In this document: positions 23,486-27,283 of the stretch, one piece after another
How positions within the stretch are numbered: the stretch's first letter is position 1
Layout of the letters: every line of letters begins with the position of its first letter
NCBI GenBank assembly: GCA_045612805.1
Contig: JAZKZR010000007.1
Span: 20,591 to 84,590, forward strand
DNA from: Candidatus Enterousia sp.
GTDB lineage: Bacteria > Pseudomonadota > Alphaproteobacteria > Rs-D84
DNA length: 64,000 nt
Direction of reading: 5' to 3'
Notes under the pieces: generated by a model
What the model was told of the DNA's origin: nothing
Seen by the model: only the letters and a program-made list of their open reading frames with translations
Databases searched by the model: none
Translations under genes and position numbers: made by a program

Positions 23486-26400
23486 TTAGAACCGATAACT
23501 TATACCACTTTTGAAATTCATATAGTTGGCATTATCCATAAAATATTGTGCATTACCATACAAACGTAACCGACCAGCCATATAATCAAAACCAAAGCTT
23601 GCCGCACCACGATATTCATAATCATTATTGTACAGGCTAAAGGTTCCATCCATACCTCGTATCCCAAGTTTTATATCGTATGTATCCCCAAATTCACGAT
23701 ATGCCATCAAGCCAGAATTCAATTTCAATCTGGATCCGCTTTCAAATGTTTTTTCATATTTAGTGTATAATCCCAACCCAGCCTCGATAGAAATAGTTTT
23801 GTCGTCAGGGATAACCAAACTAAATTCTTGTTCTTCTTCGTGTCCGCTTTGGGTGTAAACTACGGTATTGAAAGCTACATCGGGGGCAAAAGTCCAATTT
23901 CCAAATGTCAAAGGATACCTCAGATCGTTCATAAGTCCAAAGATGCGTTTTTCAATATACCCTTCATAGTTTATGTTATTGTATCCTCTGCGGCTGTATT
24001 CACTATTAGCAAAACCCGCCTTAGAAGCTACAACCAATTCATATCCATCATTAGTGTAGGTCGCTGGAACATAGAATAACCACATATTGTTTTGTCTGCT
24101 GAATCCATCCCCATCACGAGAATTGATATTTGCTGTTGCCATACCATATCCTATTTTCCAATTATCAGATATTCTATCACTACTTATTCCATATTGTCCG
24201 GATCCACTATTATTACTGCTACTGAATGAGAAATATCCCAAACTGTCAGATATATCAAAACTATCACGTCCAGAATTTTCAAACAGCTTATTGTTCATGG
24301 AAAAGCTAATTTCACGCATCGCCGACAAATCTTCATGTGCAAACTGAGTAAATGCATTCAATCCAGTCATTCCAGATAAAGCCCCATTGAACGCAGACAT
24401 ATTTTCCATAGATTTCAGAGTAGCAAATAAGTCCATGCCATTCCCATTTGCATAGTTATCAGCCAAGAAAGCTGCCAAAGACTTATTATCTGTCAAACTC
24501 TCAAAATCTTTCATCTGCATTACAACATCATGACCATTATCCGCCAAAGAAGCATCAAACATAGCAGAACCAGAACTGACATTCAATCCAGACACATCTC
24601 CAGCATTGATCATATTTTCTGCTATGTATGTTGTCTGATTGCCGTTCTGGACTAACTCACTGGAAATATTCAAATCGCCGGACAATTCATTTTCAACTAC
24701 AAATTGTGCACCAAGACCAGCTGTTACATTACCACCAAAAGAATTCAAGTTCATTTGCGGAGCCATCATCAGACCAGAATTATATAAGGTTGAGCCATTC
24801 AAAACTATATAATGCCCCATATTACAACTTGCACCAAAGCAAGAATCCCCGTTCAAAAATATTGAGCCTGTATTAGAAACTGTTGAACCTGGTTCTGCAT
24901 AAATCCCATAAATATCACCAGTTGAATCAATGCTGATAATATGAGTGTTATAAACCGAACTATTTGCTCTAGCATATATACCAAATGTATATCCTGCACT
25001 TCCAGTAGGGTTATGAGTAATTCCATCTGGATCATTATAATATTGACGTCTTATGTATATTGAACCAGAATTGATAATTGTTGATCCGACATCTCCGAAC
25101 ATTCCAAAGGTCATTCCTGTTCCTACATTTCTTATGTTTATCGTTCCTGTATTTTTGATTGTGGAGCCATTTGTTCCGTACATACCAAATACATTACCTG
25201 TTCCGTCTGTATATAAATTTATTTGTTCTGTGCCAGAAACATAATTCATATCATGATTGTTTACATTACCAGAATCAGAATATATACCGTAAGTATTTCC
25301 GCTACCATTATTGTAAATATTTATAATTGCATCACCATCGCAATAGTAAGAATTATCACTAAATAAAAAATAACAATATTTGTTGTATATATCATTATCT
25401 TTTCCATATATACCAAAAACATTCCCGTCCCCAATATTATTTATGGTGATGTATCCACTAGAATCTCCTCTTGTCCGATTGGTTGAAGCACCGACATTGG
25501 TATAATATCCACTGTCAGTGTATGCATTATATACAGGTGCGTTTTCCGCATAAATTCCATAAACATCACCATTACCTTCATTGGTTATCTCTATTCTTCC
25601 AACAGAATCCCCAGCATGAGATGTTGGACGGTATAGGTCAACATGTGTATAGGCATTATAAATCCCGCCAGAGCTTGTCGAATACATACCGTAAATATCA
25701 CCGTCCCCGACATTATCCACTGTAATTGTTGCTTCATTTACGACATAATTATTCGTGCTATCAAGATATGCATAGAAATACGAATTATACATTGTGTTTG
25801 AACTGTACATCCCATATATATCACCGCTACCCTCGTTTTGTATTTGTAAATTACCTGTTGTTTTCGGTATAACTTGTGTTCTTGGGTATGGGTTAGCATA
25901 AGTATATGTGTTGTAAGCCGAATTCAAACCGTAAATATCGCCATCACCATTATTTATTATTTTGAAAGTACCATCTGTTGTGTTACTTTGGGTAAGGTTT
26001 GTTCCTGATGGTATCATTTCAAAAGAAGCGGAAGCAATCTTGCCACTAATCCCATATATGTTACCGTTCCCCTCATTTAGCACAGTCAGTTGATAATTTT
26101 TTGAAGTTGTTAGAGAATTGCCAACTAATGCCCCAGCTCCGCCTAATCCTATTCGTATATGATCGTCTGTATGATTTTCTATATTTGCGACATAAATTCC
26201 ATCTATTTCAGTATACATACTATTAGACACTGTAAATAATTTTTGACAGCCGATACCTTCGACATAAGCCATGTAACCAGGTTCACAAACACAACCTGTA
26301 TCAGTTAGTGTTGCATGTGCCGCACAAGTTTTTTCTCTACATTCTTTATACAGTGTTTCACCCGATAAGCACGTATTACCAGTCTCTTCATATCTACCAG

Positions 26401-27283
26401 TACATTCTGTCGTGTCATATGAACATGTTCTGGGGGTACATTCCTTATATAAAATATATCCAGATTGACACGTTTCTCCTGTTTCTACATAGCCACCAGT
26501 ACATTCTGTTGTATTATAAGGACACGTTGCGACCCAATTGCATTGATATTTAGTTATTGTTCCTGCCAAACAAGAAGCACCCATTGTCCAACCGTCAGGA
26601 CAAGTATCCCCTTCTACATAATCGTAACCAGCACAAGCATTTGCAGCACACTCCACATAAATCGTGTTACCGGATTGGCAAGTGTTACCTGTTGTGTGAA
26701 AACCTGCTCCACAACTAGTATTAGTATATGGACACGTCACGGTCATATCGCATTTGTATTTTGTTATATCACCAGATTGACAAGAGCTACCAATCGTATA
26801 ACCTGCCGGACATTGAGATGAATCTGTATATAAATAATCAGCACATGGTTCTTCGGTTGTCCCGGAGCTACCACTTCCGCCACCGCCACCCATGCCTGCC
26901 GCAACGGCACCACCAGCAACACCTGCACCGATAGCAGCCCATGCCCATTTACCTAACCCTAAAAAAGACCATGATTTATTTGCAGAGGCGACTTTGGTTA
27001 TAAATTTTTCATATTGTTTAGCAGGTATGTTTTTTACGCATTTATGCCCTGTATTCGCACCTACTGTTTTCAAAACGTTATAAGTATCAATATCATCGTT
27101 TTTTATTGCGACACACAATGCAGTATTACCATCGGAATCAACAATATCTATATCATCAATATTATTCAGTTCAGTTACATTTTTTGATTGGGCTAAAGAA
27201 TAAATGTCAACCGAATCAGTAGCTGCCAAACATGTTGAAATTATTCCTAAAACAGAAACAGCAACAAAAAGAATTTTTCTCAT
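23486..27283 (-). CDS. Autotransporter-like surface protein (1265 aa): ankyrin repeat, Cys-rich modules, beta-helix, C-terminal barrel
   Basis: Signal peptide MRKILFVAVSVLG (AGAGG RBS); ankyrin DGNTALCVAIKNDDID..NVLKTVGAN; five 4-Cys modules; repeated NxGxGDIYGMY; C-terminus ends ISYRF (outer-membrane barrel signature). Confidence 0.85.
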   Translation of the reverse strand: MRKILFVAVSVLGIISTCLAATDSVDIYSLAQSKNVTELNNIDDIDIVDSDGNTALCVAIKNDDIDTYNVLKTVGANTGHKCVKNIPAKQYEKFITKVASANKSWSFLGLGKWAWAAIGAGVAGGAVAAGMGGGGGSGSSGTTEEPCADYLYTDSSQCPAGYTIGSSCQSGDITKYKCDMTVTCPYTNTSCGAGFHTTGNTCQSGNTIYVECAANACAGYDYVEGDTCPDGWTMGASCLAGTITKYQCNWVATCPYNTTECTGGYVETGETCQSGYILYKECTPRTCSYDTTECTGRYEETGNTCLSGETLYKECREKTCAAHATLTDTGCVCEPGYMAYVEGIGCQKLFTVSNSMYTEIDGIYVANIENHTDDHIRIGLGGAGALVGNSLTTSKNYQLTVLNEGNGNIYGISGKIASASFEMIPSGTNLTQSNTTDGTFKIINNGDGDIYGLNSAYNTYTYANPYPRTQVIPKTTGNLQIQNEGSGDIYGMYSSNTMYNSYFYAYLDSTNNYVVNEATITVDNVGDGDIYGMYSTSSGGIYNAYTHVDLYRPTSHAGDSVGRIEITNEGNGDVYGIYAENAPVYNAYTDSGYYTNVGASTNRTRGDSSGYITINNIGDGNVFGIYGKDNDIYNKYCYFLFSDNSYYCDGDAIINIYNNGSGNTYGIYSDSGNVNNHDMNYVSGTEQINLYTDGTGNVFGMYGTNGSTIKNTGTINIRNVGTGMTFGMFGDVGSTIINSGSIYIRRQYYNDPDGITHNPTGSAGYTFGIYARANSSVYNTHIISIDSTGDIYGIYAEPGSTVSNTGSIFLNGDSCFGASCNMGHYIVLNGSTLYNSGLMMAPQMNLNSFGGNVTAGLGAQFVVENELSGDLNISSELVQNGNQTTYIAENMINAGDVSGLNVSSGSAMFDASLADNGHDVVMQMKDFESLTDNKSLAAFLADNYANGNGMDLFATLKSMENMSAFNGALSGMTGLNAFTQFAHEDLSAMREISFSMNNKLFENSGRDSFDISDSLGYFSFSSSNNSGSGQYGISSDRISDNWKIGYGMATANINSRDGDGFSRQNNMWLFYVPATYTNDGYELVVASKAGFANSEYSRRGYNNINYEGYIEKRIFGLMNDLRYPLTFGNWTFAPDVAFNTVVYTQSGHEEEQEFSLVIPDDKTISIEAGLGLYTKYEKTFESGSRLKLNSGLMAYREFGDTYDIKLGIRGMDGTFSLYNNDYEYRGAASFGFDYMAGRLRLYGNAQYFMDNANYMNFKSGISYRF

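Follow-up and report, generated by a model that had tools for sequence, protein, structure and literature searches.

A predicted type Va autotransporter with a conserved ankyrin leader and a putatively exchangeable disulfide-rich tip on a tRNA-Val element of Candidatus Enterousia

Candidatus Enterousia and related bacteria are abundant in the gut, have not been cultured and have genomes of <1 Mb. The window analysed here is a stretch of 64,000 nucleotides from a contig of Candidatus Enterousia sp. (JAZKZR010000007.1), and positions given without a further label refer to it. From 27283 down to 23486, its minus strand carries the gene of P0002 (23486..27283), a large predicted surface protein of 1265 amino acids (aa) whose open reading frame (ORF) opens with ATG at 27283, closes with the stop codon at 23486-23488 and is the only long ORF across the interval. 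An earlier note on this DNA had picked out the same ORF, which is confirmed as real, with the correction that it is read from the minus strand, as are all parts of the gene described below. The ATG is preferred as the start to an upstream alternative, TTG at 27337, because the homologues open with the same MKK/MRK in an alignment of the family's N-termini (A1) and because AGAGG lies 10 nt upstream. The gene is single-copy in a genome of 975 kb that is 96.8% complete, and no terminator-like sites were seen in a scan of 23200-27700. P0002 is probably a surface protein of the type Va autotransporter class whose stalk resembles that of Fap2 and whose disulfide-knotted tip can be swapped; a small integrative element carries its gene, and homologous recombination would account for the diversification.

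From its N-terminus, P0002 consists of a signal peptide, an ankyrin domain, a Gly/Ala-rich hydrophobic segment, a poly-Gly run, five four-Cys modules, an epidermal growth factor (EGF)-like unit and a beta-helix, and it closes with a C-terminal domain ending in YRF. Pattern scans recovered the hydrophobic segment with its poly-Gly, the modules in the order A-B-A-B-B, the EGF-like unit and the YRF end, each of which the earlier note had read from the translation. Of the 30 cysteines in the mature protein, every one belongs to a local, even-numbered group, with two in the ankyrin domain (Cys57/82), 24 in the modules and two plus two in the beta-helix, and the spacing inside each pair or quartet is <=25 residues. 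The feature pattern exceeds what chance would produce, because all 30 cysteines group evenly and because hidden Markov models (HMMs) of the modules match 74 A and 131 B copies in homologues.

The first 20 residues (27224..27283) form a Sec-type signal peptide with MRK, a hydrophobic core of 14 residues and a CLA/A cut, recognised by eye and from alignment A1, across which its position is conserved, likewise as judged by eye. Its reading as a lipoprotein signal (ISTC) was rejected, given that Cys18 is variable in A1 and that Thr at −1 is non-canonical. At the opposite end of the protein, an AlphaFold2 (AF2) model of aa 350-1265, built on a 58-row alignment with a mean predicted local distance difference test score (pLDDT) of 87, runs as a beta-helix to ~aa 925 and continues into a helical linker with a pore helix and then into twelve long strands (aa 1008-1263). 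By DSSP of the model, the linker (aa 927-1002; 24278..24505) is a small helix bundle followed by a 28-residue helix that enters the barrel, and the C-terminal outer-membrane barrel of 12 strands (aa 1008-1265; 23489..24262), recognised from the DSSP strand count and Foldseek, carries YRF at its end and a long loop that joins strands 9 and 10. A near-invariant Met-Asn-Asn (aa 996-998; window ~24290-24298) lies in the pore helix at the end that is nearer to the barrel. In EspP-type autotransporters, Asn-Asn is the self-cleavage site, at a position that differs from that of the motif in P0002.

When the C-terminal model was compared with the PDB in Foldseek, the top matches were all type Va translocators (AaaA, EstA, EspP, NalP, BrkA, AIDA-I and Hbp), with TMt values of 0.71-0.73 for NalP, 0.68-0.71 for EspP and 0.63-0.69 for BrkA and E-values of 1.4e-8 for EstA and 6.9e-10 for AaaA. 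The check proposed in the earlier note, by AF2 and Foldseek, therefore returned a pore helix plus 12 strands with type Va translocators on top, and the autotransporter claim that it made stands on these two results. At the level of the predicted structure, P0002 is thus confirmed as a type Va (classical monomeric) autotransporter, for which surface display is predicted. Moreover, the protein ends in ...SYRF, a terminal x-F is shared by 99 of the 101 homologues, nearly all of which are of the aromatic-x-F type, and distant homologues, for example, P0077, P0080, P0082 and P0083, do carry Pfam PF03797.

The passenger stalk is a predicted beta-helix (aa ~358-925; 24509..26212) of regular short strands, all-beta over aa 358-925 in the AF2 model, with pLDDT mostly 80-98. 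Some ten turns had been counted in the earlier reading of the translation, and a strict scan for N.G.G..[YF]G[MIL] agrees, with nine repeats between aa 403 and 728 and degenerate copies after them. The N-terminal half of the helix (aa 351-640) is hypervariable and the C-terminal half is conserved; its two Cys pairs are close-set (637/648 and 815/820). A C-terminal profile of the family (A2) matches one solved chain, Fap2 (9qe7), in several stretches with an E-value of 7.7e-27, a figure to be read in the light of a high compositional bias, and a weak precomputed match to PF27417 (BigA_3rd) is on record. Fap2 of Fusobacterium nucleatum is a beta-helix rod of 47 nm whose membrane-distal, N-terminal tip binds receptors (PMC12397386).

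Between the leader and the stalk lie the five four-Cys modules (26339..26845), placed by pattern scans and HMMs as A1 (aa 147-178), B1 (184-212), A2 (217-248), B2 (254-282) and B3 (287-315), and directly after them the EGF-like four-Cys unit (aa 320-346; 26246..26326) with the pattern C..CxCxxGY..C. The modules are modelled with pLDDT values of 90-97 as one beta-hairpin each, and A and B are subtypes of a single module, with an hhalign probability of 95.6% over 24 columns. The search for copy-number variation that the earlier note had suggested finds it: the homologues carry 0-11 copies per protein in 34 different architectures. The A-B-A-B-B order is therefore exact for P0002 but not fixed, being one of 34 arrangements in the family. 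Elsewhere in the source genome, neither HMM finds a copy. As for the origin of A and B, their description as eukaryote-like is not supported, since neither module matched any Pfam or PDB sequence family and a word-based search saw them only in this alphaproteobacterial family; a phmmer search of aa 140-352 against PDB sequences returned chance matches only.

The EGF-like units are a third module type, numbering 283 in 75 proteins of the family, and pass the Pfam EGF thresholds in the homologues P0024 (EGF_DL_JAG, 70 bits), P0019 and P0088. In P0002 itself no EGF model reaches its cut-off, the best being EGF_TEN with E 0.083 and 12.9 bits against a cut-off of 65, and the unit has four Cys against the six-Cys pattern. 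Aligned with this unit in hhalign, A scores 58% and B 36%, over just 14 columns. The modules of P0002 are 52-72% identical to their sisters within the protein and 69-86% identical to modules in other proteins, and recent tandem or in-place duplication was rejected on that ground, each module being nearer to those of other proteins than to its sisters. On these identities, the modules in P0002 are old. The earlier suggestion that the modules were expanded by recombination thus survives in part: they do seem to vary by recombination, as copy number and mosaicism indicate, but the identities speak against a recent expansion in place.

How such a Cys-rich passenger could be exported can be considered in the light of the literature consensus that autotransporter passengers tolerate only closely spaced cysteines (PMC3546941). 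The tight Cys spacing of P0002 would therefore be compatible with type V export. The source genome also encodes a DsbA-like thioredoxin-fold protein (G000, contig C1:150494-151006, plus strand; PF13462, 72.6 bits). In addition, this genome, which belongs to an anaerobe, encodes many Cys-rich secreted proteins.

The leader, that is, the part between the signal peptide and the modules, begins with an ankyrin-repeat domain (aa 21-104; 26972..27223) assigned by AF2, Foldseek and VIA. In an AF2 model of aa 1-352 (mean pLDDT 83.8) it has pLDDT values of 85-96, the top rows of Foldseek are all ankyrin with a probability of 1.00, and so are 50 of the 50 top rows of VIA (best 1ot8_A, Z 7.3, root-mean-square deviation 3.2 A over 80 residues). 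P0002 does not reach the threshold of Pfam Ank_2 (E 0.035, 15 bits against 27.3). The one ankyrin-like repeat of the earlier note was rightly called ankyrin, but it is a folded domain of ~2.5 repeats. In alignment A1, its residues Cys57, Cys82, Gly75 and Ala76 are invariant. A Gly/Ala-rich, uncharged hydrophobic segment (aa ~113-131) and a poly-Gly/Ser hinge (aa 132-142) follow (together 26858..26971); the stretch of aa 113-140 reads WAWAAIGAGVAGGAVAAGM and then GGGGGSGSSG, and its small-xxx-small ladder runs A117-G121-G125-A129-G133. A poly-Gly always follows the segment in the family, with a median longest run of 4 and up to 10.

The segment, by which the N-terminus may stay tethered to a membrane as the earlier note had suggested, is only marginally hydrophobic. 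Its membrane-insertion sum is +3.9 kcal/mol, close to the family median of +3.6, both being crude values computed with the scale of Hessa et al. 2005 without position weighting, and no positive charges follow it. With this low insertion propensity and no following positive charges, the segment should pass through Sec rather than act as a stop-transfer sequence. The ankyrin domain, in turn, would be exported and not cytoplasmic, as the invariant Cys57/Cys82 pair and the DsbA-like gene argue for an oxidising compartment. A cytoplasmic ankyrin domain with the hydrophobic segment serving as a signal anchor was considered and rejected on account of the canonical signal peptide in the first 20 residues and of the invariant Cys pair.

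The complete leader stands in the same order and at the same positions in 90 of the 101 homologues. The architecture, which the earlier note had called unusual, is so in comparison with textbook autotransporters, but the leader is the norm of its own family. When a profile of the leader was searched against 1.84 billion representatives, generic ankyrin proteins matched in their thousands at profile positions 43-87; the proteins that matched the full profile in a single stretch were, when complete, long proteins with a terminal outer-membrane barrel signal. A second leader-bearing protein, of 1247 aa, is encoded in the source genome (G000, contig C1:173740-177480, minus strand; L029:241-3981) and matches the leader HMM with E 2e-10. 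Apart from its leader, it is unrelated to P0002 and has no Pfam match.

The relatives of P0002, 101 in number by a word-indexed search, come nearly all from metagenome-assembled genomes of uncultured gut and rumen Alphaproteobacteria, among them Candidatus Enterousia sp. and genomes from horse faeces, RUG rumen bins and roe-deer colon. No account of the family, of the A/B module or of the leader turned up in searches of the literature. Another accessory region with a family member is found in a chromosome-sized contig, where the homologue P0015 (L002:6261-9727, with equivalents in L003 and L004) comes immediately behind two genes, one AAA/nSTAND3-like and one for a Peptidase_S8 of 826 aa, and has a Terminase_6C gene and an ORF of 1699 aa in its neighbourhood.

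The surroundings of the P0002 gene have the features of an integrative island. A tRNA-Val(GAC) gene lies at 29431..29507 on the minus strand, and the 19 nt of its 3' end (29431-29449), the right attachment-site repeat, are copied with one mismatch in a left attachment-site repeat at 20720..20738 (repeat family D15), the two forming a direct repeat identical at 18 of 19 positions. The island between them has a G+C content of 36% against 45% in its surroundings, and in the relatives G013 and G002 the site is empty, with the metG leader, tRNA-Val and mreB contiguous; the block of 8.7 kb is therefore an insertion. Apart from P0002, the island encodes a 558-aa ORF, a 100-aa ORF, a 185-aa serine recombinase and a 277-aa ORF. 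The 558-aa ORF (27621..29297, minus strand) adjoins the tRNA gene and is a candidate integrase, with a weak DUF6538 match (E 1e-3); it fell into no recognised integrase family and had no match in PHROG, NCBIfam or the PDB, and it is conserved on the contigs that bear the allele P0003 and in a locus, L017, that carries another homologue. A relative of the same ORF with 33% identity occurs near another autotransporter (L023:13100-14083). Directly downstream of P0002 lies the small serine recombinase gene (22748..23305, minus strand), of the Hin/resolvase type (Pfam Resolvase E 9e-33; PHROG 125 'DNA invertase' 178 bits). Between the left repeat and the 277-aa ORF, ~1 kb (20720-21700) is AT-rich and ORF-poor and may hold regulatory or replication sites of the element. 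A close homologue of P0002 is present in eight of the 101 sampled genomes of the genus. Judged from the repeats, the G+C content and the empty sites, P0002 is thus shown to be accessory cargo of an 8.7-kb element integrated in tRNA-Val(GAC).

Comparison with other copies of the element indicates how the gene varies. The closest allele, P0003, is 87% identical and stands on a contig of 8788 bp with the same gene order, and P0012, 51% identical overall, stands in L017 on the same element backbone, again with the same gene order. Identity between P0002 and P0003 falls into three tiers: two stretches, aa 143-350 and aa 641-925, are 99-100% identical, the leader, linker and barrel 86-92%, and aa 351-640 62%. 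The translocator of P0002, in contrast, is 96% identical to those of P0012 and P0010, whose passengers differ, and 91% identical to that of P0003. At the nucleotide level, L017 matches the island only over 26926-29177 (82%) and 22370-25072 (92%), with no similarity in between, a gap that corresponds to aa ~120-737; in the same locus, the recombinase is 100% identical in protein (L017:6255-6809) and the 558-aa ORF is 85% identical. Because conserved arms flank the unmatched aa ~120-737, the distal passenger behaves as an exchanged cassette. These alignments show it to be a cassette that appears to have been swapped by recombination between the leader on one side and the proximal beta-helix plus translocator on the other, and across the family the Cys modules (0-11 copies) are shuffled. 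The element backbone itself is mosaic. For the P0002 locus, the A/B module analysis, the tRNA-Val island and the cassette mosaic are new.

These results can be joined in one explanation, in which P0002 would be a surface-displayed type Va autotransporter on a mobile element. The signal peptide would send the protein through Sec, and the 12-strand barrel would insert in the outer membrane, with the passenger passing to the outside from its C-terminal end. On the surface, the beta-helix (aa ~358-925) would then fold as a stalk, and the Cys modules with the EGF-like unit (aa 147-346) would sit at its membrane-distal end, likely as a ligand-binding or antigenic tip. The oxidised ankyrin domain would stay on the periplasmic side while the slim Gly-rich segment crosses or hugs the outer membrane, so that the passenger would be held at both ends. 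The layout of stalk plus tip proposed here for P0002 matches that of the adhesin Fap2. For Candidatus Enterousia and its relatives, dependence on other cells for metabolites has been predicted (PMC12306168), and from the architecture together with this partner-dependent lifestyle, P0002 may mediate adhesion or partner contact, which makes its family a prime candidate for the attachment of Enterousia to partner cells.

Several points weigh against this explanation. Whole P0002 matched no Pfam model at E<=1, PF03797 included, its parts had no usable match in Pfam and NCBIfam, and its C-terminal 366 aa (aa 900-1265) matched none, PF03797 again included, at E<=0.1; without a Pfam sequence match, the barrel assignment rests on predicted structure. 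The hit lists of the N-terminal model in Foldseek against the PDB and in VIA are all ankyrin, with no row for the fold of the Cys modules, and neither DsbB nor VKOR, either of which would reoxidise DsbA, was found in the 96.8%-complete genome. In the leader, the hydrophobic and poly-Gly stretch (aa 104-141) has pLDDT values of 30-46 and no confident structure, and although the median identity of the segment to P0002 is 73%, compared with 80% for the linker, 75% for the barrel, 53% for the ankyrin domain and 44% for the beta-helix, its value may be inflated by the Gly/Ala composition. Finally, the type V route as described in textbooks does not include a passenger anchored at both ends, and once a helix occupies the 12-strand pore, hardly any space is left there for a second chain.

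The leader is the part of P0002 that lends itself to the most divergent interpretations. Its conservation on dissimilar passengers, with a hydrophobic segment as conserved as the linker and barrel, argues that it belongs to the export or anchoring apparatus rather than to the variable binding surface. A tentative possibility is that the leader is a novel device by which outer-membrane barrel proteins of Rs-D84/Enterousia-type Alphaproteobacteria are sorted and anchored, with the N-terminus kept on the periplasmic side, the passenger tethered at both ends, and leader and translocator doubling as homology arms for the cassette swaps made by mobile elements. To our knowledge, such a double-anchored passenger falls outside the five described type V subclasses. 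As to location, a periplasmic stopper or anchor would be favoured over both a tip like that of the Helicobacter pylori toxin VacA and a cleaved aid to biogenesis. A complex prediction of the leader (aa 21-142) with the linker and barrel (aa 926-1265) scored 0.00 and gives no verdict either way.

As a biogenesis aid, the leader would be a transient device that holds the N-terminus at the inner membrane or at a chaperone, keeps the passenger unfolded until it reaches the beta-barrel assembly machinery (BAM) and is then cut at the poly-Gly or released. An analogous function has been proposed for the extended signal peptides of autotransporters. The occurrence of the leader only on proteins with C-terminal outer-membrane barrels, and its conservation whatever the type of passenger, would suit such a role, and the poly-Gly run after the segment would make an accessible hinge or cleavage site. 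However, apart from small residues, alignment A1 contains nothing conserved that could serve as a cleavage motif, a dedicated protease was not found and, with the signal peptide gone, the orientation of the segment would be wrong for signal peptidase I, so that this role seems rather unlikely.

The anchoring role proposed above has also to be set against one in which the leader is exported as the extreme tip and its Gly/Ala segment inserts in the membrane of a partner or host in the manner of VacA, so that P0002, more than an adhesin, would act on membranes in a contact-dependent manner. VacA, which is secreted as an autotransporter, carries an N-terminal uncharged segment of 32 residues with three tandem GXXXG motifs that is required for channel formation, which shows that the Sec and type V route is open to an uncharged GXXXG segment (PMC4926140). 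The small-xxx-small ladder of P0002, the strong conservation of its segment and the predicted dependence of the bacterium on other cells for metabolites (PMC12306168) would fit this proposal. Nevertheless, the segment is preceded by a folded ankyrin domain of 84 residues with a probable disulfide, and type V export copes poorly with folded domains (PMC3546941). Its hydrophobicity is, moreover, marginal, and the same leader is found on very different passengers and on a second, unrelated barrel protein, as would be expected of a housekeeping function more than of a toxin tip. A VacA-like function is thus unlikely.

A different objection concerns the source of variation, since the adjacent serine recombinase might be a Hin-type invertase that switches or shuffles the surface gene, giving phase or antigenic variation in which homologous recombination would not be the main source. 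The position of the 185-aa recombinase immediately downstream of P0002, its best PHROG match to 'DNA invertase' and the presence of small resolvase genes that also flank P0003, P0004, P0006 and P0012 would all be expected of such a switch. Inverted repeats, however, occur at chance level only (<=33 nt, with 71-94% complementarity), and none convincingly brackets the promoter or a gene segment; the best inverted pair, of 16 nt, has its arms in the signal-peptide codons and in the 558-aa ORF. In addition, a role as resolvase or integrase of the element itself would suit the recombinase just as well, and the breakpoints of the mosaic fall within long stretches of conserved coding sequence, as would be expected for homologous exchange, so that an invertase switch is very improbable. 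That P0002 is instead a periplasm-spanning tether, held by its hydrophobic segment in the inner membrane and by its barrel in the outer membrane and not displayed at the surface, is hardly credible: membrane-type elements do lie at opposite ends of the protein, and in some distant members the segment is nearly hydrophobic enough (sum ~0-1.5 kcal/mol), but a stop-transfer after a cleaved signal would leave modules, helix and barrel in the cytoplasm, which a barrel protein could not afford, the segment of P0002 combines a sum of +3.9 kcal/mol with a lack of following positive charges, and hypervariability and cassette exchange are typical of exposed surfaces rather than of periplasmic struts.

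Surface display from a mobile element thus remains the preferred explanation for P0002, and it bears on more than this locus. Autotransporter passengers normally avoid cysteines and folded N-terminal domains, and P0002 has dozens of cysteines in short loops and an ankyrin head that comes first; placing this ankyrin head would test for an unrecognised variant of type V secretion. A cassette on an integrative element of 8.7 kb offers a concrete mechanism for rapid surface change in an extremely streamlined genome, and compact disulfide modules of 30 residues could serve as display scaffolds.

Among known systems, the solved type Va autotransporters NalP (1uyn/1uyo), EspP (2qom, 8bnz), BrkA (3qq2), EstA (3kvn) and AaaA (9oqa) share with P0002 a 12-strand barrel, here predicted, that follows a helix, and the terminal aromatic-x-Phe, the N-terminal Sec signal and the beta-helical passenger are further likenesses to this class. 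P0002 differs from it in lacking a PF03797 sequence match and in having a conserved leader between signal peptide and passenger. Its predicted passenger contains 28 cysteines, whereas autotransporter passengers are normally Cys-poor (PMC3546941). With the EGF-like domains of Pfam (EGF_DL_JAG, EGF_Teneurin and EGF_2), the likeness lies in the third module type, which passes the thresholds in homologues, and in the C..G[YW]..G..C core of A and B; the single unit of P0002 itself departs from them in its four Cys and in falling below every Pfam cut-off.

VacA and P0002 are alike in that a Gly-rich hydrophobic stretch without charges lies close to the N-terminus of the passenger and has to pass Sec unstopped (PMC4926140). 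The segment of VacA stands at the very N-terminus, whereas that of P0002 lies 93 residues behind the predicted mature N-terminus and after a folded domain, with ankyrin before it and poly-Gly behind it, and the two proteins are not homologous. The mobile element, for its part, is like other integrative islands of tRNA genes with a single adaptive cargo gene in the repeat of the tRNA 3' end, the recombinase-like gene by the tRNA, the deviant G+C content and the empty site. It differs from them in that its putative integrase matches no recognised integrase family and is accompanied by a Hin-type serine recombinase, and in its size of only 8.7 kb with one large surface-protein gene.

A close parallel to the layout proposed for P0002 is offered by Fap2 and BigA-type passengers, in which a repetitive beta-helix rod is likewise mounted on a type Va barrel and the membrane-distal N-terminal region is variable. 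The helix of P0002, with ~570 residues, is much shorter than the 2905 of Fap2, and the ankyrin leader of P0002 has no equivalent in Fap2. At the tip, the 'matchstick' of Fap2 is replaced in P0002 by the predicted four-Cys and EGF-like modules.

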